NCBI GenBank assembly: GCA_951406725.2
Contig: OX597831.1
Location: forward strand, 45,322,001 to 45,386,000
Source of the DNA: Octopus vulgaris
Lineage: Eukaryota
Length of the DNA stretch: 64,000 bases
Direction: 5' to 3'
The notes beneath the pieces were generated by a model that was given only the letters and a program-made list of their open reading frames with translations, searched no databases and was not told the DNA's origin. Within the stretch, counting starts at the first letter, position 1. Every line of letters begins with the position of its first letter. The position numbers and the translations under genes are program-made. Of this stretch, positions 9,923 through 57,309 are shown one piece after another.

Positions 9923-9970
<48 letters not shown>

Positions 9971-10452: not shown

Positions 10453-10485
<33 letters not shown>

Positions 10486-10556
10486 GGAGAGAGAGAGAGA
10501 TATCCATTCAAGTGTGGATTTGATGGTGTAAGAGCTTTAAGAGCTGGATGTTCTTC

Positions 10557-11540: not shown

Positions 11541-11554
11541 TATGTATATATCTA

Positions 11555-13138: not shown

Positions 13139-13143
<5 letters not shown>

Positions 13144-13189
<46 letters not shown>
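13144..13189. repeat. (GA)n microsatellite
   Basis: Pure AG run. Confidence 0.95.
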
Positions 13190-13192
<3 letters not shown>

Positions 13193-13621
13193 AAGCTGAA
13201 AAGGCAGGGAGAACTCAGTAGCTGAGGTTTGTGGTAGTTTGAAGCAACTCAGAAAACTTTTTGTTACTACTGATGACAATAACAGGTATTGCTGCAAGAC
13301 ACAACAAAATCAGAAGTGTTATCTTACAAAAAGCAATGATGATAAAAAAATAAATAAATAAAAAACAAAAACAAGGTGATATAAAAGAAAATAATGAAAT
13401 AACACAATAATGCGAGTGATAGAAGAAAGAAGAAAAACGGAGGAGGAAGAGTGAGAGAGAGGAGAGAGAAAGAGAGAGGGTGTTTGACTGTAGAAAGATG
13501 GATAAGAGATATTTATATTGATGTATCTGACATTTAATATCTAAATATTTTATATATATTCAGCCTGAAACATGAAGATTTTTTTTTTAAATGAGTACAA
13601 TTAAAAAGGAAGAATATTACT

Positions 13622-13676
<55 letters not shown>

Positions 13677-16600
13677 CTTGTGTAAATAGATCGTATCGTA
13701 GATACTTTAGCCCCCAAAATCAATTTTACCTACTCAAGTTTCATATTTATATGGGTGGCTGTATTATACACCCACACACTTGTATGTATATCATCATCAT
13801 TATCATTTTACATCTGGTTTTCCATGCTGGTATGGGTTGGGTAGGTTTTTTGTTGCAATTTGTAACAAGGGAAACAAGAAAAAAACAAACTAAAAAAAAA
13901 ACACAGGGTTATGTTGGTGCATGTGCTTACAGTGTGGACTTCATGCATTTTATTAGGCCACAATCACAAAAGAGGTTGTCCCCAGAGAAAGATTAAAGGA
14001 TTTTTCTGATCTGAAACAGCTCTTGGAATTCATAAGTTGCATCATAGATTGACAGGGTTTGCATATTAATCAAATTTTCTATGGCTGGATGCCAATCCTA
14101 TCATAAACCGCTTTACAGAAAGTATTGGGTGCTTTCTATCATGCCATCAACATGACAGAGGGTACCTATGTGAATGTGAGGACTAAAGAGTTCTCTGTAC
14201 TCTGTATCATCAGAGCTTATTTGAATGTGCTGCCCTCCTTGGAGGTTTGCCTGTGATATTGCTTGTCGAGTCCACTTTTGACGTTTTGTTTTTGTGTAGT
14301 CTTTATGGCTAGATACCCTTTTTATCAGCAATTACTTCACCAAGTGTAGGAAGTCACATAAAATATATGTCCATATATATGCATAGAACACAGCTAATGT
14401 CATTTGAAAGTTGTCTAGCTAGCTACAAAGCATGATATATACTAAGGTTGCTAAGTGTGGAAGAATGGCAATATTATAGACAGTACTTAATCATGAGCTA
14501 GATAAGATCACTAATTCTGAAATTTGCACAAATTCTCAAAGGAAGTGATTCGGGTGTGCTTGCTCTGGTCAACTACACAATGAAAGTTGTAAGCTAGATT
14601 TCTGCAAGGCAAATGGAGAGGGTAACACAATGACAATAGCATTGCTAAAAACTTACCATAAAATCACCTCATCTGTCATAACAAGAACAACAATAATAAT
14701 AAGAATAATGATGATAATTATCTTGTAGTCAACAGAGCTGACTCCAGAATATTAATGATAAACATTCTATCAGTTCTGGAAGAATGCAAAGTAAAAGTAG
14801 CTCTTCAGAGATTTCAATTCAGAACAGTGAGTCATGGAATTAGATACCAAAAAGCTTCCAGTCCACTACTCTAGTTCTGGCATTATTTTCAAAAATCTAA
14901 TTCTCCAGTTCAATTTATAAAGATTTCTAACACTGACACAAGCCAGAATTTCTGTGACCTTCATGCCTTTTGTCAAAGCATTAACAATTTCATTGTAGTC
15001 AAACTCGAAACTGATAGCTGATCACAAAATTTAGTTTTTTTGAGAGCTTACTTCTATAATACTCACCAACTTTCTATGTTATAATAATGATGATGATGAC
15101 GAAAAAATTATATGAAACAAATATAGCATCAACTGCAAATACACAGAGTTAAGGAACCAGTTGTAGACCTGACCCACTTGTTTTGCTGTGTACTTACACA
15201 ATTTTACAAAAAATATGACCAATGACATGAAGACCATAACAGCATCTAGCCGGCGGAACAAGAGATCTTTCTTGAAAAACTATCAAACTTATTTCATGAA
15301 AAATTACTGAGCCTCAAAATACTTAACCTTTCAAAACTTGCAAATGCCTAATGTGTTAGTCTTATCTCGTGCATTTGGCCATGAACAAATAAGAAAATAT
15401 ACACTATCTCAAATTAATGCTAAATATCAAAATCATCAGTATTTTTACTCAATTATCATAATTGCTACACTTTCAATCTTGGTTTGACAGCATGTGACCA
15501 TTTTAGTTTGTGTGCTAGGCCAGTGCACTCCAATTCAGATTTCACCCAACTATTTACCCAGTGCAAAGTTGATCTATTCTAAGCTGGGTTAAAGTTTCAA
15601 TTTAAGGATTGTTCCTGAAACTTCATGTAACTCTAACAGTGGTTTGCACTAACAGCAAAGTTGAAGACAGATTTTAAAATCATTTACTTTCTGAAACTAA
15701 TATCAAGCCATCTACACTTTGTCCACCATGTTTTCCCTCTAATAATACATATTATCATAAACTTTCCCACCTAGGGATATTTTAGCCATTCTAACTTAAT
15801 GATTCTATTTTGAATTTATAGTGCATTTTAATGTAAAAGAAAAAAAAAATGAATACACTAACTGGATATATGTTGAGTGTAAAATACAAAACAAAATTTA
15901 TGTTTATAGCATGCAAACATCTCCACAGTTTTTTTTATGATCATGCTGACTTTCTTTGCAAATACAAGGCAATATATTAAGCACTGGTGCACCAGATTAC
16001 CAAATCATTCCTTGATTTAACCATTCAATATATTATAATTCTATCAACTGTAACTCTTTTTTTTTTTTTCAGAGAAATGAATGACCAATCAAATCACGCA
16101 GTCTATCTTCTGCTACCATGTTACTGCTTAACCTGGTGCTGCTGTAGAAGCAAGACAACTACAGTTGGAGATGTTTTCAACACACATTCACAGCAAAATT
16201 TAACACGGAATAACATAATAGAAAGCCTACCTTCTGACTGTTCTTGTTTTCTCCCCTGCTATAGCGTAGCTTTAATGAAAGATAAAAACAACAGTTTACC
16301 ACAGTATTGAATGAAGTTTAATTTTAAAATGAGCAAAACAACGATAAAAATGCATCGCAGTCTTTATATTGTTTTTTTTTTAATCCTTCAGAATTGTGGA
16401 AGAACCTACAGCAAAAGTTTATCTTAAGCATTTAACATGCTTGATTCCCCACGAAGCCTGTATACCTCATATTCATTCCCCATGAAGTATGTATATCTCA
16501 TATATTGACCCACATGACTACAGTTATTGGTGTATATAAGTGTGTGAGGATGTATGAGTGTATGTGTGTTGGCATGCTGCATGGGATGAACCGGTGTACA

Positions 16601-16977
16601 AAATTAAACACTTGCATATGTCCCTACTCTGCACACTGAATAAGTATTTTTACAAGTTGATGTCTGCCATAAAATCCATAGCTTCAGCTAAATAGACTTA
16701 AGTAAATGTAAAATGGACTGCCTCAGAATCTACAACCCAATGCCAATCACAGAGTTTGAAGCAATCATTTGTAGAAACTAACCACCATATTGACATCTAA
16801 TAGTGATAAAACTGAGAGTCAGAAATTGATTTCACCACTGAAACGAAAGCAATCTGATAACATATTCATAACAAGTATACACTGAATTATATACGAACTT
16901 TCACAAACAAGTTCGATCAGCTGCAGTATTTGGAAGATTTCAATAGAACACTTGAAGAAAATGATGCAAACACTTAC

Positions 16978-17057
16978 TAATGAATGAAGATGGTTGTCAA
17001 AATGTGGCGAGGTAGTGCTGCTCTGAGTGCTTGGTCGCTGCCAGTGACTAGTTGGGC
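16978..17057 (-). CDS. TCF12: E-protein exon (G)PTSHWQRPSTQSSTTSPHFDNHLHSL
   Basis: Acceptor atttcag|GC, donor TTA|gtaagt; 80 nt, phase 1 to 0; similar to TCF4 GTAVWSR...SSPNYEGPLHSL. Confidence 0.94.
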
Positions 17058-18903
17058 CTGAAATATTAACAAAATAATTCAATAACAAGCTTTATTAAAC
17101 AATTTCATGCACAAATCAACAAATAAAATCAGTACGCTTTTGTATCAAACGATGTTTCCTACTTTTCCATAATAGTCAATAAAGCTGATATTTTGGCATT
17201 CCACACCCTAGATATAAGCATTGTTAAATTTCAAGACTCCTAATATTCTTTGAATTTCGCTCTTTTGTTTAAGGCTGTCACATAAGTATCTAACAAAGCC
17301 TTCTTCATTCAGCTACCTTTCTTGAAAACAAAAATCCTTAAATAGGTTTTCTTTGATAAAATGATGTTGATAACATATGACTTTTTTTTCCCCAAAGGTG
17401 AGAGACAATCTCATTGAAATTGCCATTAATCTGTCAAGATACTGAATGATAATAGTAATCCACCTTCTCTTCTTCAGGGCCTCTCATTTGGCTAAATGAT
17501 GTTTGTATGTAATTAAAATATTTGGAATATCATCTAGAAGTACTGTTTATGAAAGATGATAGAATTAATAAGGCTGTAATGTACAGATATTTATCAAACA
17601 ATTTTATTCCACTCACTATAGACAAGAAATTATTTATATGGCTGAAATTTCAGCATAAAATACTCAAGACAAAACATTTTGAGGTTAAAAGACATCATAT
17701 TTTTGATGTCTTTGAAATCACTCTGTTGTTGAAAGTTTCTGCATTACCACTGATATCCACATCCAAAAGTCTGGATGTTGAATGATGATAGTATTAACCC
17801 CATTACGTGCATCCTCATTTTCATTGGTCCCATTCTGGATAAACAAGGAGTGTTATTAAAATACTTGAAGCGTCTCCTACAAGTACTATAGAAATTACTT
17901 CTGCTAGTCATCATCAAAACAGTTGGAAGGCGATTTCTATATAATTTTCTCTCTCCACCGGAGAAAGTAATCTCATGATACCAACACAACATTTTAAAGG
18001 CAAACCTGTTAGGGATTTTGTCTTTACAAAAGTTTGCCAGATGATGATGAAAACAAGATGGTGACAACCTTCAATGACAGAGTGAAGTGCAAAGAGCATT
18101 TAAAGTCCTGTCGTTTCAAAATGCTTTATCTAGTAAGATATTTTAAACTGTACTGTATAGGTGTAGGTGTGGATGTATGGTCAAGAAGCTTGCTTTCCAC
18201 CAGGCGATGTCAGGTTCTGTCCCACTGCTCAGTACATTGAGCAGTTGACTTCTACTATAGCCCCAGCCTGACCAAATCTATTTTAGAGGATTTGATAGAT
18301 GGAAAATCAAAAAAAAAAAAGCTCATCATGTGTATACCCTTGTCTTGACAACAGTTGAGGGTTGGCAACAGGAAAGGCATCTAACTTTAGATAATCTAAT
18401 TCATTGAATTCCATCTAACCCATGCAAACATGGAAATATAGATATTAAAAGATGACGATGATATATAACTGTATCAATTCATTTTTATAGGATAAACAGT
18501 ACTTCCAGTTTCATCTATGTTGGATGAAAGAATATTCATATTGCAAGTTTTAAAAAGATATCTTTGCTTACTTATTCTTTCCCATTACATATAACTTCTC
18601 CAAAGTCATTAACAAATGATATAATAATTATTAATATACTTATTCAATTAATATGTATATGTATATGAAATGGCGGTGCCCCAGCATGGCCACAGCTCAT
18701 AAGCTGAAACTAGAATCAATCAATCAATCAATCATGTGTACACTACATATTAATGTCCTAAAAATGGTGAACACACGCGCACACACACACACACATATAT
18801 ATATATATACCATTTGTAGGACATATATATATTATAGAACCTTTAGATCTAATGTACTCAATATTTCCCATAAATGCTTTCTCCTGATAACTTGAATTTT
18901 TAC

Positions 18904-18982
18904 CTGACATAGGAGGAGGTGATGATACTGGAGTGGAAGGGTTCGAGCCATAACTGCTGTTAGTATGTTCTGTGGAGTAGAT
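18904..18982 (-). CDS. TCF12: E-protein exon IYSTEHTNSSYGSNPSTPVSSPPPMS(G)
   Basis: Acceptor gttttctag|ATC, donor G|gtaaaa; 79 nt, phase 0 to 1; similar to TCF4 [23 protein letters not shown]. Confidence 0.96.
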
Positions 18983-19531
18983 CTAGAAAACAGAAAAGCA
19001 AATAATAATAAATATTGATGATGATGATGATGGTGAACAAGACAATGATGATGATGACAATGATAATGATAGAGGCATAAGACCACAAAAATGGCGGGAA
19101 GGGAATGGTTGATTAAATCAGCATTGGTTCACGACTAGTACATGTTTCCATGATGTCAAAAGGATGAAAAGCCAAAGACACTCCCAGATTGATTTGAACT
19201 CAAAATGCAAAGGGGAAGTAACTAAATACCATAAAGAAGGCAATCCATTCAGTGCCTGATTTTGCCATTTATATTAGTAATAGAGGAAGTAACAATAGCT
19301 TCAATAGGCAAAAGACCAGAAATCTAGGGGAGGCAGTTAGTCAATCAAATCAATCTCAGTACTTTTCATCAACCCAGGAGGGATGAAAAGCAAAGCTAAC
19401 AATGGCTGGATATGAACTCTGAACGTAAAGATCTGGAATATATACCACCAGACACTTTAACAATTCTACCAATAACAATGAAGGGAGAGGGGTTATTAGT
19501 TGATACCATTGATCACTGTAATAGACTTGTA

Positions 19532-19694
19532 CAGTGGTCCTCAACCTGTGGTCCACAAAGGTAGTACTGGGGGTTTGTGAACTAAATTTAAAACTTCATA
19601 AATATATCAAAGGATAAGCATATTAAAAGGGGTTCATGGAAAAACTCATTTAAATAAAAGGGGTCCTTGGTAGTGAAATGGTTGGGAACCACTG
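19532..19694. mobile_element. hAT-type MITE inserted in a SINE
   Basis: TIRs CAGTGGTCCTCAACC / GGTTGGGAACCACTG; 8-bp TSD gacttgta / gactagta. Confidence 0.85.
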
Positions 19695-19833
19695 GACTAG
19701 TACTTTACTGACTCTGATAGGGTGAAAGGCAAAGTTGACCTCAGCAGGTTTGAACTCAGAATGTAAAGAGTCAGAACAAACACTAATGATTCTGTCAATC
19801 CCCTACCATAATAATAATCATCATCATAATGAT

Positions 19834-20141
19834 AGACAAGACGAAGAGTGTGATGCGATTGCAATAGATATTTTATTGGTTGAGCAATATTTCGGCACTC
19901 CGTGTGTCTTTTACAAGTTCAAAATACAAATTAAAATTAAATTCAAAGCAAGGAAGTGCTGAAACATTCAAAATTAAATTCTGATTTAATTTTGAATGTT
20001 TCAGTGTTTCTTAACTTTGAATTTAATTTCCATTTGTATTTTGAACCAATAAAATATCTACCGTCCAACCCAAGCAAGCATGGAAAGCGGACGTTAAATG
20101 ATGATGATGATTGCAATTGCATTGCACTATTCGCCTTGTCT
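19834..20141. repeat. Foldback palindrome interrupted by a retroelement tail
   Basis: Nested inverted arms 19917-19979/19984-20046, 19865-19881/20044-20060 and 19834-19865/20110-20141. Confidence 0.9.
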
Positions 20142-23100
20142 GTTAAATTTTCTGAAGAGTTACGTCAATCCTTTTAAAATATAGTAATATAATAGTAATA
20201 AGTGATTCTGATTTGGGCACAATGCCAGCAAATTTGAGGAGAGAGGGTAAATCAATTACATCAACTCTCAGCTCGCTCCAGTATTTGACTGGTACTTCAT
20301 CGACCTTGGAAAGATAAAAGGTAAAGTTAACCTTGGGACATAAAGAGCCAGAATAAATACTGCAAGGCATTTTTTTTTCTGAAGCTCTAACGATTCTGCC
20401 AAGCCACCAACCCAATAATAATGATAATAATAATCCTTTTTACAAAAGGCACAAGGCCTGAAATTTGGAGGGAGAGGACTAATCAATTACATTGACCCCC
20501 GTGTTTTACTAGTCCCTAATTTATCAACCTTGAAAGAATGAAAGGCAAAGTCAACTTCAGTGGAATTTGAACTCAGAATGTAGCGAAGAGCAATATACCG
20601 CTAAACATTTCGTCCAGTGTACCAACGATTCTGCCGGCATTTCTGTACAAGGCCAACAATTTTGAAAGGAGGATGTTAGTTGCTACCACTCAGTACTTGA
20701 CTGGTACTTCATTTTACTGATCCCAAAGGAATGAAAAGCAAAAGCTGACCTAGGAAGGATTCAAACTCAGTGAAAGTACCGGAACAAATATTGCAAGGTA
20801 TTTTCTCCATGCTCTAATCATTCCTGCCAATCCACTATGATGATGATGATGATGATGATGATAAAAATAACAACAAAAACAATAAAGAAAAGAGAATTTA
20901 AATTCTTCAGAGGACAATATAAAATGGTAGAAATGATTTGCAGACTAAACCAGAATTCTAGCTTAAACCCCTTTAAAGAACCCTATTAGTGTGTTGCTGT
21001 AATGTCTGCAAATGCACATATATTTACATTATACTGGTTTCAAAATTATCAACACAGCTTTGTGAATCCCTTTTGAAGACAGACACGAATACGTTATTCC
21101 ATTCCATGTAGTCCGACTTTGCTCTTTAGTACAGAATGAATTCAGATTTTAAGTCAATATGTAGACCAACACTCGTACCTTGGATAGCTAATACTGTTTC
21201 TCTATCTGCCTATCAATCTATGTATACATGCATATACATGTGAACCCACACAACACCACCAAATACATGCATGCATGTGTGTGTGTGTAACTGAATGGTA
21301 GATTTTGCAAGGCATACATATTATTGCATCTAATCTGTATGTAACATATGGCACACACTGCAGCAACTTAAGATAATGGCATAGTTATGCGCCATATACT
21401 TGCTTGTCCCTAAAAATATACTCCCCCATTTACTGCACATTTAATGAGATCTCACCACCCATCACCATTACATCTCCATATGGTAGAGTGGTTAAATAAA
21501 TATATATCTTAGTTCATAGTAAAATATGAAAATATTAAGTTTTTTTTCCTTCTTTCTTCTATTAAGCACACCACAAGTTAGATTGCCTGCTGACAATTTT
21601 TGGGGTCCTGATGCCAGTTCTAATGATCAGTATGAGACATTTCAAAAGTGTACGGCTTAAGGTTAATATAATACTTCTTCAAAACATAAATTAAAATATT
21701 TATTAATCAAACTGATCAGCAACCATAACGTCATATCTACATGCTATCTAATTATAGTATTCTGATAAAGATGCTTAAGATGTCAAATAATAATTTGATA
21801 AAAGGGATTACAGACAAACAAAAATTAGAGGAAGAAAGAGGAGGTAGGGACAGTTTTTTGAACTCAGCGGAGATCTTCAAAACCGTCACAAATGTTTTAA
21901 CATCTGTTTTTCCATGCCTTGCATGAGTTGGACCTTGTTTCAATCTTTTGTCATCTCCCCTGAAAGCCTACTTTCCTGAATTTCTGAGATCAGACACCAC
22001 CTCTTCTTTCCATGTTTTTCTTCATTTTTCTCCCATCACGGGTAGTCTCCTCTGACAGCAGATAGCACTTTTTCACCCAGCCACTACTGGTCCACTATAC
22101 CACATAGCTTATAAGAGTGTAGTTGTCTCTCATGTACTCACTGGCTAATAATACATTAATGCCTAGCTGTGCTTGCAACTTATCTCTGAGCTAACAACAT
22201 ACATTCAACAAAACATGCTTGCCTCGTTACTCTCCCGTCTCCACAGATCATCTACAGTCAATGCCCATGTCTCACTATCTACTCAATACCACAATTCTTC
22301 CACATTTTTCATATTTCATACAGTCTTTCATTCACATGGAGGGAGAAACCTCTTGTTGACAATTAATAAATTAAATTATATTCTGCTACTAGAGCTAGAA
22401 GTTGTGTGCTGAAACATTGGACACTAAACTTGTTGTTTTAGATTATTCACAGTTTGTTATCTTAGATAATGTAAATATCATATAAGACTTAAGCCAATTA
22501 GTCAGAGGCCCACTTCTGTATCAATTATCATTCTAATAACAACGCTGTAAATTAAGTCTCTCTTTCTCCACTTGGTGCCTCTTTCTCAACAAGTATTACA
22601 TGACTAATCCAGTATGTAACACCCTTGTGAAATTCAAGGCACAGCCTCTTTTTTTTTTTTTTTCCTTAATATAAAGTAGTTGTATAAAATAATATCTAAA
22701 ATTTTCTTCACAATTAGATTTGAAGTCAAAACAAAAACAAAAAAAAAAAAACCCCAAGAAACTAAATACTAGAAAGCTGTGGTCAACTTGTTACTCCTGA
22801 GGCTTAAAGATTGTAAGTCAGATGCTCTAAGTTTTGATAACATTGAGACAACGAAAATATATATATAAAAATAAACTAAGTCATCAAAACTAAATTTAAA
22901 ACAACTGAAATAACATGAATAATCCCATTACATAGAGTCATATATTCTAGCTAACACTTTAGAATACTAATTGTTAGGTTTATTAGAAAATGAGTTGAAA
23001 CACTGTTCAAATGCTTTTGGAACATATTTCACTGGCACCAATAAACGAAAATAAAAAAATTGATCTCAGTCTCATTTTATAGTAGATCATCTAAACAAAA

Positions 23101-23590
23101 GTCATTTAAATTATTTTCAAAATATTGTAAAATTGCAAATCTGATCAACCTATGCCAATAAAATAGTCTACTGGGTCTAAATATAGCAGTTTATTTTATT
23201 AATATATAAAATTTATTACAGCAATTTGAAAAATATTTGCAGCCAACAGTAGCACAAATTTTTGTAATGGCAAAGATATTTCAGATCAGGATGTTTATTT
23301 GTTACATGTAAATCACTGTATAATTTGTAAATAAATATTCCAAATACATTTTACATTAAAGAGCAGAACAGCCAATTTAATTAACTTTATGGTTTCAAGT
23401 ATCACTACCTTACAATGTACATGACGTGAATCATGTAATTTAATGAAAGAATAACTTTAATAGAACTTAGGGAATTAACCTCATCTACAGCTTCCCATAA
23501 GTACTTTTATTGTTTTTAGTGTATCTAAGTTAATTAGTTTATTTTGGAGTTAATTATATAAATGACTTGACTTAATGAAGGAACACTTAC

Positions 23591-23815
23591 AGAGGCTAAT
23601 GCTTTTCCTAATGTGTCTCCTGTTTGTGTAGTTCCTTGATTACGAGAGGCCTGCATAATATCAGAGCCATTCACTGTAGGTGAAGTGTTGGAAAATGTGG
23701 ATGATGACACAGGAGGCACAGTAGGTAGCGTGTTGCCACTACTGCGAAATGTTGACATAGGAGGAAGACCTGATGATAGCATAGCTTCATGATTTGGGGA
23801 AACAGTATGGTAACC
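23591..23815 (-). CDS. TCF12: E-protein exon GYHTVSP...LPPMSTFR...QTGDTLGKALAS
   Basis: Acceptor tttttag|GGT, donor TCT|gtaagt; 225 nt, phase 0 to 0; LPPMSTF and TGD.LGKALAS motifs. Confidence 0.97.
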
Positions 23816-25699
23816 CTAAAAAATAAACAAATTTTACTTTATTGAAGATGTCACTAAAATTATTTTTGGTTAAAATGCAATTAAAAAAAAACAATAAAAG
23901 AAAAACAAAGCAAAAAATAAACAATAAATAAAAATGAAAATGTTTAAAAGTGGACAAGTCATCTGTTTCTGCTGGCAAAACTGGTTTTTCTTTAAGTCCA
24001 TTCTGGTGTATAGGGGAAATTGTTGTCAAAGTAAATGTTCAGAGAGGAAAATATTCAGGATGAATTCTGCTTTATTAAAACTTTTACTTGAGATTCTAAA
24101 CAATCTTATTAGTTGCTAATTAAAACAAATCTACATAATCACATTAGGGAACATGTTACCAGATCTAATGTAAATTTAGGAAACAAAGAAGTCAGAGGCA
24201 TTTAAAATAAATTTTAGACATAAATGAATATACTACAGTTTTGGGGAGTATAGGAAACAGAGTTCCAAGTTTGCTGGGGTCATGAAAATCAAATAAATTT
24301 CAGAAGAAACTATGGCGAACCAACAGGAAATAAATGATCATAAAATTAAAAACAACAACAAAAAAAACTTGATATTTAAGACCATAAGGAAAAGTAATTT
24401 AATATGTTTATATAATAAAATGTATTTAATTACTCTTGTACACATTAGTAGTAGAATTACAGTTCTAAAAAGTAATGCACTAAACATTAAATTTTTTCAA
24501 CACTCCAGGTATGTATATGTATATGTGTAAAGATATATATATATATGTATATATCTAAGCATGCATGTGTACACATACACACCAACATACAAACACAGAT
24601 ATATAACACAAACATATTCAAGAAATGGTCTTTTTTTTTTTCTGTTTCTGTTTCTGAAGCCAGTTTTAAAGAAAGGCTTGCCACTACCACCTAATATAGG
24701 TTAGAAAAACATAGGGTAAGGGAGGTTAAGGAAAGAATGAATTAACAGCAGCATTCTATTTGAAAAGAAACCCAAGCTGTTGCTTAGCTAGCTACTTGTG
24801 TTGAACAAACTAATTCCTTCCCTATCATGGAGATTGAGTGATACCACATGGGAGTAGGAAGCTAAGATTTTCCTTCAGAAGAACTGATTTCCTTCAGGCT
24901 CCTGACAGTAGCTTGACCCCTGTAAAAGTTGCTGAGGGAAGTCATCTCCTCAAGATTGATATCTGATATATGACTAGGAAGTAAAGATTAATTAGATTTA
25001 CTAAAAGAAGATCAACAATAAACTTTAAATATTTTGGTTATAGATTAACAAACCAAAGCAATCAACAAAATCACACAAAATTTTTAATTCTGAAAAAAAA
25101 AAAAAAAAAGTAAAAAAAAAAGAAAAGAGCAAAGTAACAAAACAAAAACAAATCACAATGTTATTGTAATATAATATATATAAATGTTATTGTAGAGAAG
25201 TGTGTGCATGTGTTTACAATTTTTAAATAGGCTGATGAACAGATACATAAAGTGAATCACATATCTTATGAGGTTTACCTGTGCAACAGTGTTTAAAAAT
25301 TGTAAACATATTTGTGATTTAATACTAGCGGCTTCACAGAAATAAAAATCATTATATATAAACACATACATGAGAAAGAGAGGGCATTTATATCATTTTG
25401 ACCTAGTAAAAAAAGAACAGCTAAAATGTTCCTGACATTTTAAAGAAAACCAAACATGTAGATATAAAGACTACTTGCACATGGAAGAAAAAGAAAAGTG
25501 AGAAACACATTCTACTATGTTTGAAAATAATTTGGAATAATTCAGCTATTTATACCCATTTTTGAAACAATGATTGATGAAGGTGTGAATATATTTGAAA
25601 CCAGTAAAATGTAAACATGTGCATGTGTAGATATCACAGTAACACAAATACATAAACTTTAGTTTGAGGGTTTCAAAAGAACCAGCTTAATACTGAAAA

Positions 25700-25746
<47 letters not shown>

Positions 25747-26566
25747 AGCAAGAGGAAGAGACTTAGAAGTGAATATAAAAGTCTTTGTGTTCTTAAATGA
25801 CGAACATGACTTTGCCACATTATATATATTATACCCTTATAAATACATTTATATATACAAATGTGAGAAAAAGTACTCAATACATATAGTGGAGTCTTAT
25901 ATAAGAAGAATCTGAAATATCAATGTTGCACGACTAACGGGTGATGTGAAACAGAATAACAAGTGTGGTATCTCAAGCTTATATACACACATGGCTATGT
26001 GATTTCAAAGTTTCCTTCCCAACCACATGTTTTCAGGTTCAGTCCCACAGTGCAGTACCTTCAGCAAGTGTTTTCTACTAAAGGCTTTGACCAACCAATG
26101 TTTTGTGAGAGAATCTGGCAGATGAAAACTATCTCATTTATACCACACACACACGTACGTACACACTAAAATAATCACTGGAGTCAATATGATCAATTAG
26201 AAGGAGAAAACTAATAGAAATAGCTATTTTCCTATTATTGAGAGCCAATTTATAATTTTCTTAAGGATTAGTAAATGAACTATTAACACTCATGAGATGG
26301 ATTTAATAGTTGGTAGGCAAACTTTCGAAATAGCCATCATTACTTCATGGCAAATGAAATAGGCAAGGATTTGGGTGACTGTTTCCTTTTATGAAAGAAT
26401 TTTTTGTCCAAAATAACCCCCACTCCTTACAGTTTTGCCCATCAACTACATGTCCTATTCTGGTAAAATTTTACTGGTACTTTTCTCCATGGTGGAGATA
26501 GTTATTCTGGAAGTCCACTGATCACCTATTAATCTGTCTCACAAGTATAGTAGTTTTCTTTACTAA

Positions 26567-26945
26567 TCATCATCATCATCATTTAACGTCTGCTTTCCAT
26601 GGGTTGGATGATTTGACTGAGGACTGGCGAACCAGATGGCTGCACCAGGCTCCAATCTGATCTGGCATATTTTCTACAGCTAGATGCCCTTCCTAATGCC
26701 AACCACTCCAAGAGTGTAGTGGGTGCTTTTACGTGCCACCGGCACGAGAGCGAGTCAGGCGGTACTGGCAACGGCCATGCTCAAATGGTGTTTTTTACAT
26801 GCCACCTGCACACGAGCCAGTCCAGCGGCAATGGCAATGATCTCGCTCAAATATATTTTCACGTGCCACCAGCACAAGTGCCAGTAAGGCGACACTGGTA
26901 GCAATCACACTCGAATGGTGCTTTTTACATGCCACCAGCACGGTT
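26567..26945 (-). mobile_element. RTE-tail-type retroelement with internal tandem subrepeats
   Basis: (CAT)n-ttaacgtc..ttccatg tail and gatgcccttcctaatgccaaccac; repeated tttac(a/g)tgccacc units. Relatives at ~1458-1710, 3225-3400, 3745-4040, 6435-6770, 9983-10065 and 59330-59510. Confidence 0.75.
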
Positions 26946-28047
26946 AAGAAATTGGCCGTGCGTGTGTGTGTGTGTGTCAACATGCATGTGTGCAATGTTA
27001 CAAACAATAGCTGATCCTGTTATTAAATTTTTTTTTTTATAAGTAAAGCCTGCAGAGCAGTTTGAATTGGCTTCTTGCATTGAGTTCATGCCTCACTGAA
27101 GTCAAATACTGGTACTTTACTAAAAAATGAAAAGCAAAGTTGACATCAGTACTGAATTCATTAAACTATACACTCTGCCGAAATATGTAGATCTGCGTCT
27201 CTGCTAGAAACCTTTAGATTTGGGTTTTAAGCTGTTAAAATCTAAAGGCTCCAAGAGTAAGATAAGGAGGGCATGGAAGAAGAGAAAAAGCAATGAAATT
27301 CTATCACAGGAAGCTGAACCTGATAAAGGTGATGACAAAAGAATGAAATAGGTGGTAGTGAGATTCTATGCTGCGGAAGATCCAACCAGCTATACAGGCA
27401 TGGGAAAAGAGACTTAATAGACATTCTTTTAACCCTTCACTAGTTTTATCCATTGGACCGAAACCACACTGGGCATCAACCACCAGGGACTACAGTCAAT
27501 TATAGTGACTTTACTATTTTAGTCACATATTTATTTTACTCCTCTGCTATTCAAATTTTGGCACAAGGCCAGCAGTTCTGAAGGGAGGACGAAAGTCAAT
27601 TACATTGATCTCAGTACTCAACTGGTATCGACACTGAAAAGATAAAAGACAAAGCCACCACGAGAAGCATTTGAATTTAGAATGTAAAGATCCGGAAGAA
27701 ATTCTGCTAACCAATTTTCCTCATATGGTAATGATTTTGCTACCTCGTAACCTTACTAATCCATGATTAATGATATGCAAATATACAATTTTTGATTCGG
27801 CTTCAGTTTTACACCAGCAGATGTCAGCACAGGAACACACACACACAAACAAACATGAAATTACAATTAATTGTCTTCTCCTCGTGGTGTTATAGCCAGT
27901 CATGGCACGGGCCAATATAAACTGAAACCTACATAAGTATCTAAGTAACCAATAAATCGATAAGCACATAAAGAAATAAAATAGTTGTATGAGTAGAGAC
28001 AGAAAAACCCTATAGAAAATAAATATATAATATATAATATATATATG

Positions 28048-28094
<47 letters not shown>

Positions 28095-28229
28095 TTAATA
28101 AGGGTGAGAGAATTAGATACTAATTTAATAGTATATCTATTCTACACCAAGTGGCCTAGTGCTCCGAGAAACCTTTTGGATTAACTGGTGCTAGAGTGAG
28201 CCATATAGTGACCACTCTCTTATATTTAT

Positions 28230-28273
<44 letters not shown>

Positions 28274-28984
28274 GTATGTATATATGTATATATATTGCAT
28301 TTGCTTTTGTGTCTATTTTCTACTTTCTTTACTTTTATTCTTTTCAATGTTCAATGATTATTCAAGGAAAAATAAATAATTAAATTGGAGTGTCCACCCT
28401 TCATTTATAAATTCATTCACACACAAATCCTAAGAGTAATAAACAGATACTTTTAAAGCATTTTTAAGATATGTACACATTAAATAGCTAAAATAAAATG
28501 ATAACGCACAGACAAATATAGACCCACATATATTAATTAGATCAAATGAACATAACAACTGAAATTAATATACATAGTAATATAACACAAGCATAACTGA
28601 TGGGAATGCTTCACTTAAAATTCTAACAGAATAAGAAAAGATTTTATTGAGACCCTGGTTTTAATAATCAACAAATAAAGTTAGATTAAAAGACATTAAT
28701 TAGCTGAAGGGTGAAACTATTAGTAGCAATGGCAATTAAAGAAATACCCAGTTATTAAGATGTACGTATGTGCATGTGTGCAGAAACTGCTGCTAAGAAG
28801 GATATTTTTGTTTGTAAATGAGTTTTAACAGAGGTAGAGTCGTTTATATATATTGATTATTAAATGCATACTTTTGCATGAGAGAGAAAGGAAATAAATG
28901 GCCAAACACATCAAGCTGAAGATGTTTAATGATAGTAGAAAGATTGAGAATCATAACTGTAGAGGATTCTTTGCTAGCCTGAAA

Positions 28985-29444
28985 CATTTGTAGTTGTTAT
29001 TTAGCTCCATGAGACCTGATTGAGAAGACCTATGATTAAAGCCTTCCAACAATAAACATCTGTCAAATTGTATAGCAGGGACTAACATTCTGATGCACGC
29101 TTCCTTTTTTTTTTGAAGACAAGTAGGGTGTGATTTGAGCTTAGCTGCTATTTCTAGTAGGTGCAATTGACTATAAAGTGGCTCCATTAGTTAGTTGTTT
29201 AGCCCCAGGTTAGCATCATTTTAGACTGAACTTATGATGAAAAGCATTCCAGCAGTGACCACCCCGTCCCATTCCCAAGCACAGAGCATGTACTGAGAAC
29301 CACATTATTCCAATATGTCTTTTCCAGACGGTAGGATGTAATTTGAGAGTTACATGACTGCTATTTGCAACTTGTCAAATGGCCATGTTAAGGGGCCTCC
29401 TCATTGGCCCATGTCGTTGAGTAAAAAGAACCAATCACAAAAAG

Positions 29445-29493
<49 letters not shown>

Positions 29494-30310
29494 TTTTTAA
29501 ACATAAGCAACATCCAAAACATTAGAGTTGCTTCCTTTTGTTCTTGCATGTGTGTTTGTGCATGTAGTCAGTTTGTACACATGTAACCAAGAGCATATAT
29601 ATATATATATATATATGTATATGTATGTATATATATATAATACTTACTGATATATACATGCGCACATACCTAAGTCAGCTCTGACTGAGAAGACCATTGA
29701 TGAAAGTTATCCAGCCAACCCATCTATTTCAAAATATCAGAATTCACATTCTCTAGTGAATCTCTCTTTTTTATTAAGCTTTAGTTGCTATTTCTTGCAA
29801 GTGGATCAACTACATAGAGACTTTATTGCTGTTTAGTCCCAGGCTCTGAATGAGCATATGTATGATAAAAGGCATTGCACCACTGACCAGAAGAGATTTG
29901 GCTGCCATTTGTAATATTTCAAGCAACCATGGAGATACCTCACTGGTCTGTGGCTGTTTCAGTTGTTGTGTACTTCCTGATCATACCTGATCAAACATAT
30001 TCACTATGAAATGCATTCCAGTTATGACCATCCCACTCCTTTCCCAGACACAGAGCACACTCCACTGAGAATTATATGAGTCCAATCTCCCCTTTTCAAG
30101 ACAGTAGAATGTAATTTGAGAACAACATAGCTGCTATTTGTAGCATTATTGAAGGGCCATGTATATTGGCTCATGTCATTGAGTAAAATGAATGAACAAA
30201 CCAACCGTAAAAAGAGAATATGTTCATATATATGTGTGTGTATAAGTATGTTTGCTTTAGTACAAACGCAGTTTCCGAAACGGTTACTGCTTGCACTTGG
30301 ATTCATTACT
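28985..30310 (+). repeat. Cluster of ~5 copies of an unclassified ~200-bp repeat with local duplication
   Basis: Recurrent ttgtttagccc..agg...ctatgat.aaaggcattccag...gctgctatttctag; other copies at ~40815-40990, 45680-45860 (-) and 59070-59280. Confidence 0.7.
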
Positions 30311-32168
30311 CAACCTGCATGTGTGAATAAGCTTACTTTCATGCTTACATGACAGTGTGTGTATATGTGTATTCTTCGTCTACATCTGGTTGTGTGGTTA
30401 GATTTGTATGTATGTGACTGTAAGCACATGCAAGTATAGTATGTGTTCATGTACTAGCTGGAGGAACATGAATGTATACTTAGGCTTATGTGAACATGTA
30501 TATTGTGTGTATATGTATATGTACTTGTCTGTGCACATACCTGTCTAACGACAAATCAATTCACAGTAATAGATTGAGCTGATCATGGATTTCTAATTAG
30601 TGTTAGTCACAAAAAGTGTATTGTAATAGTACATGCATACATACTACAATAAATGGATCCTCGAATGGTTTCAAGTATTTCAGTTGTTCAACTGAATTAT
30701 GGAGATAATGTCTGAGTATTTTCCTTTTAAAACCATAACCTAATTCTCAGGCAGAATCAGCAAGATAGAGTATGTGACAAGGCTGGCCTTTTAAACTAAA
30801 TGCCCATTTAACAAACTTCCACAGTTTCTACCCACCAAATGATTATAAAAATGAACTTTTTAAGCACTAGACCATGCCTACAAATACACGCGCATGTGTG
30901 TGTGTTTATTGACAAATTGGGTTCAGTTCCATTGCATGACATCAAGGGCAAGTGTTCTACTTGAGCTTTGGGTTCACCAATGACTTGTAAAGCAAGTCTG
31001 GAAGGCAGAAACTGTGCAGAAGCCAGTTGCTCATGCAGGGACTTACATGCATGCATAAATAAGGAACAGCTTTTCTTTCAAATATGCTATATATATATAT
31101 ATATATCATTAAGATCACCTTAATGCCTACTTTTCCAAAATTGCATGACACAGATGTACACTTTGCTGATGCAGATATTCTATGGCTGAATGCTCTTCCG
31201 TCAACTCTCACCTGTGTTCTAGGTAATATAACCCCCATGGCCAGACACGTTTCCATGGAAGAGTGGAAATGAACAATACCGTTTGTACGATGATGGTGCT
31301 CATTTACAACTACCAAGCAAATGTTCAAGACAAGGAGGCACAAATAATCCTCACTCCGCTCATGCAAACACACACACAGAGCAGGCTTCTTAAACCTTCT
31401 GCCAACCAAATCATCTTGTAAAGGCTTTTGTAGGCCAAAGGCTGTAGTAGAAAACATTTACTCAAAATGCCATGCAGCAGGACTGAACTGGACACTACAG
31501 AGCCACGCCTGTGCCTTCAGTGTACGAACTAACACACCAAGTTAAAAAATTATAATCAATCATCAAATGATATAAGCAAGACTGGTGATCTTCTATGATG
31601 GCATACTAACTCATGATTTTGTGTGCTTTCATGGAAAGTCACTGATTTTGTGGCTGAGACCTTAATGGTTGACTGAAACAAGTAAAAGTATTCCCTCTCT
31701 TTTTTAGGAAGCACAAGCACTTACACACATGTACACACATGACAGTAACTATTATGGCAGAAGACATTTGCCCAAGGTGCCATGCAATGGGACTGAACCT
31801 GAAATCATGTGGTTGGGAAGCAAGCTTCCTAACCATACAACTATTTGCATATTCTTTTACAGTGTCTTTGAACTGCTATGAATTGAGCACTACCTTCATA
31901 ATATAGACCTTCAATATGGGTACTTAATTTACTGACCACGTGGGAGTCAAAATGCAAAGATGATCTTAGTGCGAAAGAAAATCAACTCAGGTGGCACTAT
32001 ACACCACAGGGGACTTTTGTTCAGTCATGTTCCATTAATATACAGTGTTCAGCTTAAAGATTTTCTCACATAAGGTTTTGTGGAAACACCTAGAATCATG
32101 TGACTGAGGCATACTCTTGAACTACTTGACCTCTTTTAATGTTAGCTTGCGTTCCAGGGATTAGCCCA

Positions 32169-32395
32169 TTAACTCTTTAACATTCAGACTTATTCTGTCA
32201 AATGTAATGCTTATTTATTCACATTGTTTTAAATTAATCATGGATTATCTTGTAGCTTTGAGATTTTCATAATGTGATTGCTTATTTATAGAAGGACATT
32301 ATAGAGTAGGCATGAGAGGCCAGATATGGCTGGTTTGAACATAAAGCGTAGAATATTTTGACCAGATATGGTTGGCTTGAATACTAAAGGGTTAA
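32169..32395 (+). mobile_element. piggyBac-like MITE family A
   Basis: TTAActctttaacatt ... atactaaagggTTAA. Confidence 0.8.
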
Positions 32396-35059
32396 ACAGC
32401 CTGGCCCACTGCCCAACTGTTTGCTAGCACATACACATAAACACAATTTTTTTTTTGCCATGCTAGGATATTATCAGCTGGATGCCCTTTCTGTCACTAA
32501 CCCTTACTGTTTTACTAGTAAGAGATCTCTTATTTCACATGATTTTGAAGGTGAAAATCCAGGAGACGATTCATTAGCTCTTTTGTTACCATATTTTTAT
32601 TGAATTACACCCTCTTTATTTCAATTAATTTTGAAAATAATAAAGAATTTACTAAAATATCTTCATCATTTACTAAGTTACTAATTGGAACATAAATTAA
32701 CATGAAATTTTAATGGGAGATTTTAATTTAGATCACTTTATATAGAAAGTTTGTATCAAAGAACTAGGGACAGTCTTGAGCAGGTTGGTATCAAAAGGAT
32801 TAACAGGTAAAAAATTATAGCAACATCACCACTTATAGTTCATGATTTTCAAAGAATAACAAATGTAAACATGGACAACACACACACACACACACACAAA
32901 TACAAAAACTTCTTTCAGTTTCCATCTACCAAATCCATTCCTAAGGCTTGGTTGGTTTGGGGGCTGCCATAAAAAACATTTATCCAAGATACTGAGCATG
33001 AAATCAGCTATTTATAGGAAGAAAAATTTTTTAATCTTGCATTTATTTCACATGTAACAGAAAGCATCTTTTAAAAAAACAAATTATGTATACCATATAT
33101 GTTCAGCACAAAATCAATACAATGAAAATAATAAAACAGACTGATTCTAAGAAAAAATAGTGTTTTGTATGACTAGAGTTACATTTAACTACCACGACGG
33201 CAATTAAACAAATAAAACATCAAACTAAGGAAAAGATTAAAGTGTTAAGAGTGACACAAATTCATATCCAATAAATGCCTCCAGCATTAACAAATTATGC
33301 TGCTAAGTCCCACAAATTACCGAGTCTCAAATTTCTTATTATGTTTACTACAAGTCATTATTTTGATTTATTTCCTTTGAATCCTGGTGCAGACACTTTA
33401 CCCTAATTCACAGCCTTTTATGCTATGTTCACACTATTTAAATTCATAAATATACAACTAAACTCATTAAAAACATCTTGCCTAAATCTCTTGAGGAATG
33501 TATTTACTAATAAGTCTATCGAGGGTAAATGTCATGGTTTGCCTAAATGCATCTAATACGCAGATGATATACAGTATACAGGCAATATGAGAAAGGAACA
33601 AAAAAAGTAATTATATTTTTTATGGTCTGACGTATTTAAAATCTATTTGTGGGTGAAATCATGAATGTTTAGTTACTATTCTATATTACTATCATGAAAT
33701 CATGGGCCTTAAATGTAAACTTCACAAATGTTTTGTTAAATTTCACTATAAACCCACTTGACCTGATGAAGTGTGTCATCTTTCTTCATCTTAATTTAGA
33801 ACAAGCGAAATTGTTCATGGTGGCAGATATTAAATTAGCCAGAAAACTGAAATTAGATGATAAAAGTAATGACAACAATGATTTCTGTCATTCTATTGCC
33901 CTTTTTTTATACTTGCGTGAGGTGGATACATGAAATAATCAATGGTATTAACATATAGAAATTTAAATTGCTAAACCTATAACATGAGAAATAGAAAACC
34001 TATAATGTTAATCATCCTTAAAAGCAGACTACACAATGTAGTCTAAATTTACTTAACTAGTCATCTGTCAATAAAGTTAAGGATTAGAAGAACAATATAT
34101 GGCTGATTTTGTTAAGTGATGAAATAATTTGTCCAACCAACCAGTCTGATATTTTATATGCCGAAAGATAGCAACATTCAATTTTCGTGCTAAGAGCCTC
34201 ACAATAGTTCCCTAATATTAACTATCATAACAAGCAGTCAAGCAGATAACAAATGAAAATAATATTCCTCTGAGATTTCTTACTCAGCCTTATTTTCCTC
34301 CAAACCACCCATCTGCTCCAATTAAAATTTATTTAATGCTGTAGGCGGGTATAATGAACACAGCAAAAAAAAAAAAAAAAAGAAAAGAGAAGAAAAAAAA
34401 CACACTAAGAAACCCAGGTATAAAGTAACAGGATTTTAATTTGCTGGGGCAACTGGAGATAGAGGAAGAAAGATTAAATAGTGTTAAGATATAAGTTATC
34501 TTAATAACATGGATGAAGAAGGGAAGGTGATGATCACGTGGCGTCCTGAAAGCAACAGTAGCAGAACAGTAATTCAGAACAATGATGATGAATATTACAG
34601 ACCTTCTGGTAGAAAGTATGTTCAGGATGAGAGACTACAGTTAATGCAATGATGGAAAATAAGGCACATTCTTGTATGTACATACAAGAATATACACAGT
34701 AACAAGTTTCTCGTATTAGTAAGTTCATCTTGACTGTGTTCTAAGAAACAATTGAATTATTTCAATGAATTTTAAGACCTAATGAAATTTCTGATGTCAA
34801 TTGTTCAGTAGAATATATGACCATCTCTACTGGTCTTAACCATTAATCTAGAATTAATCAGGCTGGAATTTGATTTAATATCAGAATTGGTTAACTGGTC
34901 ACACATCAAAGAACTATTGTAGTCTTGATATATGTCTGATGAAGGTTTGCTTACTTTCAAACTACATAATATCACAAACCCTTATACATATATCTGGGTT
35001 ATGTTTGATGTTTAGAGAGAAATGAACAAAATCAAGAGACAACAAAATAATTTACTTAC

Positions 35060-35205
35060 CATGTCATGGGTATGATGCATGCCACTGTAAGTTGATGGCT
35101 GACTATAATGATGGGAACTACTATTGTGTAGAACTGATGAAGTGTATGAGGATGTAGGAAGGCCATTATTTTGAGACCATGGGTCGCTAGAACTATGTGG
35201 ATTAT
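35060..35205 (-). CDS. TCF12: E-protein exon (D)NPHSSSDPWSQNNGLPTSSY...SGMHHTHDM
   Basis: Acceptor tcttgacag|AT, donor ATG|gtaagt; 146 nt, phase 1 to 0; similar to TCF4 DGHHSSDPWS. Confidence 0.95.
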
Positions 35206-36091
35206 CTGTCAAGAGAAAGAAACATTAAATAGTTTAAATTCAATTCTAAAGCATTAAATATTGTCCAAGCTGGTATACAAGACGCATTTAAAAAAATTCT
35301 TAAATGTAACAAAAGGTTTGACTGTATCGTGGATAGGATACCAAGAGAATGATGAAACATTACATTTTTTCTTTAAAAACATAAAAAAAGGAAGGGTTTA
35401 TTTTATGCAAGAGTGTGTCTTACAGACTGGCAAATATAGTATTTTAAATTCAATGAACAGCACTAATTCAAAAGTTTAATTAGAAAATGGGTAATTGTTG
35501 GGATTTAGTCTAAGCTGAAATTTTAAAAATAATAAATTGAAAAATGAGTTACAAAGACCAGCTAAATACCAATTAGGGACAATATTTTCATAATTTTGTT
35601 GATACCAAAGAGCACAAAAATACTGAATATTTAGACCAAAAGTTTAAAATTTATGCTGTATAAGTAAAACCATATCGAATAAGAAATCTCTTTAATGTTG
35701 TACACATGTATGTATGTTTATATAAACACACACTTATTCTTTTTTTTTTTTATTCCAGTGTAGGAGCCTGTACTTGGTTGTTCAACTGCTGATGTATTTT
35801 TCAAGCTTCTTACTGCCTTTAAAATGGAAACCATATTTTATGACAGCGTTAAAAAAAAAGATGGTCATGGAACACCAATTAAATTATGAATTTGGACTGA
35901 GTTAACAAACCAGATATACAAGATAGAGTTTATGATGCTTTTAATGTAAAGGGCCGGTGGATTACTCTTAAGCATATATCTACAAGCCCAGTACATTAGT
36001 GTTTAATGTAATGAACCAGAGAATCTACTGCTATACTGTCAAGTATGCAAATATTTTATGTTGTTAAATATATACCCCAGCATATATGATT

Positions 36092-38975: not shown

Positions 38976-39063
38976 CGTACATATAGGACTCATAGATACT
39001 TGGTTTTGGAGACGGATACTGCGGTGAATCTTGACGGTACTCATCTGGGCTAGGTGAGTAAAC
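38976..39063 (-). CDS. TCF12: E-protein exon VYSPSPDEYRQDSPQYPSPKPSIYESYMY(D)
   Basis: Acceptor cttttgaag|GTT, donor G|gtgagt; 88 nt, phase 0 to 1; similar to TCF4 VYAPS...DYNRDSPGYPSSKP. Confidence 0.95.
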
Positions 39064-43672: not shown

Positions 43673-43732
43673 ATTTCCTTTGGGAGGGAGGTACATAAGG
43701 GTTCTATAGAATGGATATGTTGTACAATACAT
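43673..43732 (-). CDS. TCF12: Candidate alternative first coding exon C, HEBAlt/TCF4-A-like (MYCTTYPFYRTLMYLPPKGN)
   Basis: ATG at 43732-43730, 20 open codons, donor AAT|GTGAGT, phase 0. MYC...YP...LMY pattern as in the vertebrate Alt domain. Confidence 0.75.
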
Positions 43733-46418: not shown

Positions 46419-48221
46419 CATATATATATATATATATATTTATACACACACACACACACATTAGCTGACACAAAATGTAGATATTCATTTAATCATTGGC
46501 TCTCACACAATCAAGAACTCAGTTTGTTTACATTTCATCTTATTTGATTACACTCATTTACTTCCAAAGTTTTCTATCCTTTTTTAAAGAAATGTTATCA
46601 CTCATAAGAAAATCATCATTGGAATAGAAATGTTTTTTTCTTTTCTTTCATTTTTTTCCCCCTTATAAGATCATTCACATACACACTCACACATGTGTGC
46701 ATGCACACACAGGCACAATGCATTGCCATGTTCTATAGTCTCCCATTCCTTATTGCTTTCATACAGACTTTTGTCATGACTGGAATTAATTCTTAATTAG
46801 TTATGGAGCATACTCAGTGAAAAATACTTTGTCTAGCTGAATTAAAATATGCTCTGTGGAAAGTATATGTATTTTACACACACACACATTTACACAGGCA
46901 CGTGTGTAAATAGACACACACATACATGTATACACATGCAAGTATCATTTTAATAATTAAAATATAAAGTAATTTCCTCGATAAATAATAGCTAATTAAC
47001 TTCTAAACATGACCAAGCTAATAAACAAATAAAGACATTCAATTATCTGGTTAATGTATTAAGTTTAGAAAGCTCAAATCAAAATATTTATTGATGAAAC
47101 TCAGGGTATTTGAAATCTTTAGCATGCAGACAGGAAGTTTATATGGGGAAGTAGGAGAGAGAAGCCAGAGAAAAGGGTAGAGGGATCTAAGACATGCCCC
47201 ACTCCCAAACATGTTCCTATTAGCATGGCAGGCCCAACTGGTCAGAATATAATTGATAAAACACATTGACTAGAAAGAGAATAATCTATTTATTGCTAGG
47301 GTTTGTGGGGATAATTTTTTTTCATTCTAAACAAATATAAATTTCTAAAATCATAAAAAATAACACAGTATTTTTCAATAAAATGGATCCAGGAGATTTT
47401 ATCTAGTGAGTTGAGACATATCTAATGAACTAATAAAAAGATTAGATTAGTTGATAATATGGCTTCAACAAATCAGCAGGAAAGAGATATAAAAAGTTAA
47501 CTCTAAAAGTGAGAATTCTATAAAATATATAAACCTATGCCAAAATATTTACTCTTTTAGACTACCAGCAGAATATAAGATCCATCCATATTATAAATAT
47601 ATATTTGTATTTATTATATACAGTAATTAGAAACCTCATTAAAGTCTTAACCATAGTCTGGTAAAAAAGAAAAGTAAAATAAAATCATGAAATAATAAAG
47701 TCAATGTAAATAAAACAAACTTTTTTCTCCTAAGATTTTTAATTTCTTAAGAAGGAATAGGTTCAAACATTTGGTCATCTTTCAAATATTAAAACAGTTG
47801 AACAGAATTATACTTTATCAAAAAGTAGAGGAAGCTAATTAAGGGACAAATTTTACTAAAGTACACTGTGATTATGCCCATGTGTTATAATCCTGTTAAA
47901 ACATCAGAATTGGAAATAAAGTGGTATAAGATTTCAAAACTTTAGTAGAAGCTGTTGAACCACATAAAATAATTAAATACTAGATAGTATTTAACTATTT
48001 CTATTTAATTGTTAGTTTTAAAAACTAGAAGGAAAACAAATATGCCCCTTATTTTTTTTTTATTGTTGAGACAAATTTCCTTGGTTCTATTCTGGGAAAG
48101 AGAGCAGAACAAAAAAAAAAAATGATAGTAGTCAGTCATGCTATAGTTGTGAGACCCAGTAAACAATAAATAAACAAACATATAGAAAACATTTAGACAG
48201 TAAGCATGAAATGAAGCACAC

Positions 48222-48251
48222 CTGTAACTTGGGTCTGGAGTAGTAGTACAT
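48222..48251 (-). CDS. TCF12: Candidate alternative first coding exon B (MYYYSRPKLQ)
   Basis: ATG with an upstream in-frame TAA, donor CAG|GTGTGC, phase 0. MYYY matches the end of the vertebrate Alt peptide (LMYYYNGK). Confidence 0.55.
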
Positions 48252-48254
48252 TGG

Positions 48255-48520
48255 CACCAAATGTGCAATGTCAGACAGCTGCAACCCTCTCTGTCCTTAA
48301 ATCAAGCACTGCTGCTACAGTTAAATTGCCAGCAAAGGAGATATAGGTGAGAGAGAGTGAAAGAAAGAGAAAGGGAGAGTGGGGGGGGGGCAGAGGAAGG
48401 AGAGAGAGAGAAAAAGAGGCAGAGTGTTAGAGCATAAGAATGAGTTAGTGATGGTAAGAGGGAGAGCGAGAAAAATAAGTGAGAGTTAGTGGGGAGAAGG
48501 AGAGAAGAGATAACATCTAG
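48255..48520 (-). promoter_or_regulatory. Putative internal promoter / 5' UTR for alternative exon B
   Basis: Long GA/CT-rich tract with a G run directly upstream of the exon B ATG; E-boxes CAGCTG (48276) and CAAATG (48258) nearby. Confidence 0.35.
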
Positions 48521-57267: not shown

Positions 57268-57309
57268 CTCATGGTAAAATTGTAATGGCTTTAGCTCAAT
57301 ATAATCCAT
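57268..57309 (-). CDS. TCF12: Candidate alternative first coding exon A (MDYIELKPLQFYHE)
   Basis: ATG at 57309-57307, 14 open codons, consensus donor GAG|GTAAGT. Phase 0 matches the VYSPS exon; unique non-repeat flanking sequence. Confidence 0.55.

Follow-up and report, generated by a model that had tools for sequence, protein, structure and literature searches.

A 64,000-nt stretch of the Octopus vulgaris genome (the window) carries part of an E-protein gene, one intron of which holds three short candidate start exons. The middle one, a ten-codon exon with its ATG at 48251, is probably a real exon when all readings are taken together, and we consider the chances about even that it is a genuine alternative first exon, one of three such start exons (ATGs at 57309, 48251 and 43732) in the same intron. 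The initial annotation took it for an alternative start exon of an E-protein gene. This proposal has moderate support: the splice donor is good, the phase is correct, the pyrimidine tract upstream is unique, and a bivalve match is suggestive. Alternative start exons at this intron are an arrangement already known from vertebrates, and the tyrosine triplet of the predicted peptide resembles in sequence the regulatory motif of mouse HEBAlt; shared ancestry of the two is unproven. Better supported is a by-product of the analysis, namely an Alt-type exon (exon C, ATG at 43732) that can be recognised not only in octopus but also in a lobster, a snail and two annelids.

The gene belongs to the E-proteins, as ten exons are 81-100% identical per tblastn segment to residues 210-595 of the O. 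bimaculoides protein P0001, named 'transcription factor 12'; the matching exons span 39063 to 1934 on the minus strand. Identity is 92-100% in most segments and lower in two, one of which owes its value to an alignment entering the intron. The HLH domain lies at residues 614-667 of P0001, and the corresponding octopus bHLH falls outside the window. An octopus E-protein is also present in a tree given in PMC6433000. The canonical N-terminal exons (P0001 residues 1-209) lie outside the window, none having been found in 39100-64000, so that 39064-64000 forms part of the intron which separates the last of them from the first common exon. Judged from where Alt peptides join, the exon at 39063 is the counterpart of HEB exon 9 and TCF4 exon 10: in P0059, P0064 and P0072 the vertebrate Alt peptide, 23 residues long, stands immediately in front of the homologous exon. 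The features discussed below are collected in Table 1.

Table 1. Features of the octopus E-protein locus, in positions of the window
Feature	Position	Strand	Remarks
Nine further E-protein coding exons	1934..35206	minus	P0001 aa 239-595 (tblastn)
First common exon	38976..39063	minus	100% identical to P0001 aa 210-238; acceptor phase 0, after TTTGAAG
Exon C	43673..43732	minus	20 codons; donor AAT/GTGAGT, phase 0
Splice donor of candidate exon	48216..48224	minus	CAG/GTGTGC, phase 0
Coding part of candidate alternative start exon	48222..48251	minus	10 codons, MYYYSRPKLQ
Putative 5' UTR	48252..48316	minus	in-frame TAA 48299-48297; E-boxes CAGCTG (48281), CATTTG (48263)
C/T tract, AG-free 200 nt	48317..48516	minus	82% pyrimidine; three CTAAC (48489, 48448, 48430)
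Third candidate start exon	57268..57309	minus	14 codons; donor GAG/GTAAGT (strongest of the intron), phase 0

The anatomy originally described for the candidate exon, with an upstream in-frame stop, ten codons and a phase-0 CAG/GT donor, proved correct; the feature lies on the minus strand, which had been left unstated. Its ATG occupies 48251-48249 and codon ten ends at 48222, the in-frame TAA stands 16 codons upstream of the ATG, and the stretch from 48434 to 48252 is free of ATG. The ATG stands in a weak context, with C at -3 and T at +4. Both the donor at 48222 and the acceptor at 39063 are in phase 0, and they are separated by 9,158 nt. Several properties of an Alt exon were found here: the intron position before the common exon and downstream of the AD1 exons, an own ATG, an open frame, a phase-0 donor and the triplet YYY. 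A TATA box was not detected within 300 nt of the ATGs of the exons at 48251, 43732 and 57309, a 36-residue read-through of the candidate exon gave no match in Pfam, and by blastn the region is not a dispersed repeat. E-boxes are dense near the candidate exon (3 in 115 nt versus 0.45 per 100 nt intron-wide), a density which we discount as evidence because one of the three is the donor itself. A sigma-70 promoter scan was set aside as irrelevant to an animal gene.

Upstream of the candidate exon, at a distance of 65-270 nt, lies a C/T tract which contains the 200-nt segment richest in C within the 24.9 kb of the intron that the window covers, and whose AG-free zone is the longest pyrimidine-rich one of the intron. 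The first AG after it is found at 48316 and is followed by two tandem CAGs. Three CTAAC motifs, placed 115-175 nt upstream of this first AG, were matched by 17 of 20000 shuffles, and the other 24.7 kb of the intron contain 12. The tract has no stable fold (z 0.46) and no other copy in the window. What had been called a promoter-like GA/CT-rich tract is confirmed as a tract, and 'promoter' is one of two readings of it: judged by its sequence, it could be a promoter or 5' UTR tract, or the polypyrimidine tract of an acceptor with a distant branch point.

The donor at 48222 scores 10.1 bits with a generic, untrained matrix. Among the 1446 GTs of the intron it ranks second with an AT-rich background and 13th with a flat one, that is, in the top 1% on both, and its U1 duplex of -6.7 kcal/mol is weaker than that of 8 of the 10 internal donors of the gene. 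Only 2 of 403 phase-0 micro-ORFs running from an ATG to a GT on the sense strand reach this donor score, and none does so on the antisense strand.

Conservation of the peptide was assessed by comparing all intronic candidates with the residues that precede the common exon in invertebrate E-proteins. The junction tests retained 89 of 117 proteins, which yielded 53 distinct 60-mers; the 28 dropped were genomic read-through ORFs or proteins without the common exon. The counts exclude 11 matches that scored like vertebrate proteins, as well as P0036 and P0166, the latter being repetitive. The best match of the candidate peptide is to residues 222-228 of the pearl oyster (Pinctada) protein P0051, an unreviewed gene model, with 5 of 7 residues identical from Met to Met, and it sits in a non-canonical insert of 60 residues directly before the common exon. 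Anchored at the Met, this match was equalled by 6 of 1000 shuffles, in a test designed after the match was known and in which one unrelated candidate reached 8 of 1000. Without the anchor, 8 of 200 shuffles did as well, while four of the other candidates among the 54 reached 3-10 of 200; over the entire set the figure was 21 of 300. We favour the single-test value because the site had been named in advance; even so, the Pinctada match is borderline and, on the sequences compared, suggestive.

Alignments A1 and A2, in which part of the candidate peptide fell on the common-exon residues SPKP, were not used. P0174, which has a short tyrosine-containing start ending in LQ, was rejected as a homologue since it scored only 22 and may be a read-through of an acceptor.

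These data have to be weighed against the reading that there is no exon at all, and that in an intron rich in repeats an ATG, a run of TAC triplets and a donor-like site have come by chance to lie beside low-complexity, CT-rich sequence. MYYY occurs three times and YYY 50 times across the six frames of the window, MYYY is present in 6.5% of 200 shuffled introns, and 11 of 100 shuffled introns also yield two micro-ORFs that are equally good. The cross-species match fails after correction for the 54 candidates. Moreover, neither the homologue searches nor a HMMER scan (31 hits) gave a protein beginning with MYYYSRPKLQ, a ten-residue match being below the thresholds of both; isoforms with this start may be hidden among the 14 members of the P0001 cluster. 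Against chance stands the meeting within 300 nt of a top-1% donor, the correct phase, the most C-rich tract with its three CTAAC motifs and the Met-to-Met match in a bivalve, at a site that had been named ahead of any homologue data. We regard a chance origin as unlikely. The repeat content of the intron includes, at 41777-42771, a tandem array in which a SINE-like unit of 215-250 nt is present as four to five diverged copies, with more copies at 52906 and 54266; Rfam gave no match anywhere in the window.

The candidate may instead be a real but internal exon of 93, 90 or 87 nt, opened by the AG at 48316 or by one of the tandem CAGs and served by a distant branch point. Exons of this kind, described for human in PMC1431707, have long AG exclusion zones and are often alternatively spliced. 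The octopus tract shares with them the long AG-free pyrimidine stretch and branch-point-like motifs far from the first AG; the octopus acceptor is putative, and those exons are human. The rarity of the three CTAAC motifs under shuffling and the exon lengths, divisible by 3 from each of the three first acceptors, also speak for an internal exon. However, the composition of the tract (26 A and 9 G among 200 nt) by itself makes it AG-poor, the branch-point consensus is a general one that may not be that of octopus, no upstream leader exon was identified, and the counterparts known for this intron act as first exons. An internal position seems rather improbable. Following a non-coding leader, such an exon would still provide the ATG; following a canonical coding exon, it would keep the frame but bring in the in-frame TAA, and as a poison exon would send the mRNA to decay.

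Returning to the reading as an alternative first exon, transcription would start in or near the C/T tract, presumably from an own promoter, and translation would begin at the ATG at 48251. The donor would be spliced over the intron of 9.2 kb to the common exon, and the predicted protein would have about 608 residues (10 plus 598, the common part being taken from P0001) with AD2 and bHLH kept. This short isoform would be without the LDFS motif of AD1 (P0001 residue 37) and without a basic cluster KRRK (residue 203), which lies at the position of the TCF4 NLS. It would be a weaker E-protein imported by a partner, as are TCF4-A, -H and -I. Given the weak context of the ATG, leaky starts at the next Met would be possible, as in TCF4-I.

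The vertebrate systems provide close parallels. The Alt exon is described as a start exon, short and coding, which lies in this intron and replaces AD1 (PMC3346973), and the octopus candidate shares with HEBAlt (TCF12) and E2-2Alt/TCF4-A the intron, the phase-0 splice, the common exon and the putative replacement of AD1. In human TCF4, mutually exclusive 5' exons 10a, 10b and 10c (isoforms A, I and H) precede exon 10 (PMC3137626); one of them is Alt, one codes for an unrelated peptide and one appears to be non-coding, as the internal Met start of TCF4-I implies. According to the same source, the isoforms from 10a-10c lack AD1 and NLS, are less active than the full-length protein and enter the nucleus via partners (PMC3137626). 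Octopus likewise has three candidate 5' exons with unrelated N-termini before the same common exon. In contrast to the human set as described there, all three octopus candidates are coding, and the start of the candidate peptide is by eye dissimilar to that of TCF4-H. Should the candidate exon be expressed, the use of this intron for several short, promoter-specific E-protein isoforms would not be a vertebrate invention.

Among invertebrates more widely, Schrankel and colleagues reportedly described in 2016 an alternative form of the single E-protein of the sea urchin, going by the title of that work.

The exon with its ATG at 57309 is better supported than the one at 48251. Seven of its first ten residues match the N-terminus of P0127 directly before the common exon, and none of 200, 300 and 1000 shuffles in three tests did as well; it also matches a stretch of seven residues in the gastropod-like model P0176. 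This exon, which has the only donor stronger than that at 48222, and exon C both have clear cross-species matches (0 of 200 shuffles each), which indicates that the intron hosts several start exons. Their distances to the common exon are 4.6 kb (43732), 9.2 kb (48251) and 18.2 kb (57309). DNA similarity among the three exon neighbourhoods is at background, with 6 of 52, 5 of 55 and 23 of 55 random intron pairs scoring as well.

A phase-0 micro-ORF of 27 codons at 56682-56762 on the minus strand is rich in Cys and His, has a weak donor (4.5 bits) and overlaps a CAT microsatellite. Its first three residues are those of TCF4-H and another frame resembles the start of the common exon; both resemblances are probably due to chance. 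Other tyrosine-rich alternative N-termini are found in P0010, P0012 and P0026 (Haliotis, Nucella), where they are joined to exons further upstream, which suggests that molluscan E-protein genes have many 5' exons, as TCF4 does.

Exon C has full-length homologues in proteins of Lamellibrachia, Ridgeia, Homarus and Bulinus. BLOSUM62 scores were 78 to the annelid proteins P0027 and P0028, 59 to lobster P0156 and 33 to Bulinus P0040 (0 of 300 shuffles), and exon C also stands out in the comparison with the 53 60-mers (0 of 200). In the annelid genomic ORFs P0125 and P0126 the match to exon C stops at the same place. Against the vertebrate Alt peptide P0072, exon C aligned end to end with MYC, YP and LMY (121 of 5000 shuffles). 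The initial annotation held that it best matches the first half of vertebrate Alt; this is true only narrowly (local scores of 24 versus 17), neither half being significant by itself (314 and 2400 of 5000), and the alignment is best end to end. The other protostome peptides are individually weaker in global comparison with vertebrate Alt (annelid 696, lobster 316 and snail 1780 of 5000 shuffles), so that orthology to vertebrate Alt rests on position and modest similarity. As far as sequence can tell, exon C represents an Alt-type exon in its entirety, one that protostomes have conserved, and it is a better Alt counterpart at this locus than the candidate exon. A TAG after a short pyrimidine run 5 nt before its ATG means that exon C, too, could be spliced into. 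The literature matches listed included nothing about Alt exons of cephalopods or protostomes; a protostome Alt-type exon may already have been published.

Of eight vertebrate Alt peptides, seven contain YYY. In annelids, lobster and snail the homologues of exon C have the same two-part form without YYY, and the triplet occurs in none of nine hand-picked short invertebrate N-termini, five of which have 3-5 tyrosines. The occurrence of exon C in these protostomes, taken with its position and its weaker end-to-end match to vertebrates, suggests that Alt is of bilaterian origin and that YYY was added later.

The functional relevance of the triplet can be discussed by analogy to mouse. HEBAlt reduced to its last third has full ALT activity and loss of the whole Alt causes an about 3-fold drop (PMC9385190); the positions of Met in P0072 suggest that the last-third construct begins with the Met preceding YYY. 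JAK-dependent phosphorylation of YYY boosts activity, a finding reported in the same work for mouse HEBAlt and E2-2Alt only (PMC9385190). The octopus candidate has MYYY in common with this last third, which is sufficient for ALT activity in mouse (PMC9385190), but differs from HEBAlt in having 10 residues instead of 23, no MYC-YP part and no end-to-end similarity. By analogy, the ten residues could act like the last third of vertebrate Alt, as a small tyrosine patch which would support activity and would perhaps be phosphorylated. If expressed, the exon would allow one to ask in a natural setting whether YYY at the N-terminus suffices for kinase control.

A bolder version of this idea, which we consider improbable, is that one intron yields three AD1-less isoforms and that MYYY is a minimal JAK-controlled phospho-switch, a natural 'last third only' HEBAlt in a mollusc. 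The MYYY exon would then be split from a pan-bilaterian Alt exon, itself without YYY in protostomes. If true, the link from cytokines to E-proteins in mouse T cells would have a cephalopod counterpart, through convergence or retention.

Concerning the origin of the triplet, the first annotation noted a match of MYYY to the second half of vertebrate Alt, and this match is indeed nominally significant (44 of 5000 shuffles versus 3403 of 5000 for the first half). End to end, the candidate peptide showed no homology to vertebrate Alt (global score -3, 1524 of 5000), nor was any match significant when it was compared with either half of the four protostome Alt peptides, exon C and three others (613-4739 of 5000). 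Two origins had been offered, a duplication of an ancestral Alt exon with complementary motif retention and an independent tyrosine-rich N-terminus, and the latter fits better. On the peptides compared, the simplest reading is that protostome Alt is without YYY and that the candidate exon gained it separately. Most likely the YYY of the candidate exon arose from a tyrosine-rich start independently of the vertebrate YYY, and exon C is the inherited Alt exon.

The alternative is very doubtful, namely a duplication of an ancestral Alt exon that had both halves, MYC-YP and YYY, with exon C retaining the first and the candidate exon the second. It can draw on the four identical residues of MYYY, on the prevalence of YYY in vertebrate Alt peptides, on the Pinctada segment, which also scores on the vertebrate second half (32 of 5000), and on a resemblance by eye in that the candidate peptide and the end of exon C both read M-Y...P-K-x-x followed by the donor. 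Against it, exon C still has its second half (LMY), and its protostome homologues have the same two-part form, so that no complementary loss needs explaining; the candidate matches neither protostome half, the two neighbourhoods share no DNA similarity (23 of 55 random pairs score as well), and the Pinctada segment already has another residue in place of the first Y. Complementary duplication is not supported by these sequences, although an old duplication may have left little signal in ten residues.

Further downstream in the gene, a 39-nt exon at 16231-16269 on the minus strand is present in Octopus and Argonauta proteins and missing from the cephalopod-like P0003; judging from these sequences, it is likely a cassette exon just before the AD2 core. 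A second copy of the AD2 core, of which several other mollusc and annelid proteins have two, does not occur in the window. The AD2 exon itself (8720-8959, minus strand) is 92% identical to O. bimaculoides, compared with 92-100% for most of its neighbours, and its first two residues differ.
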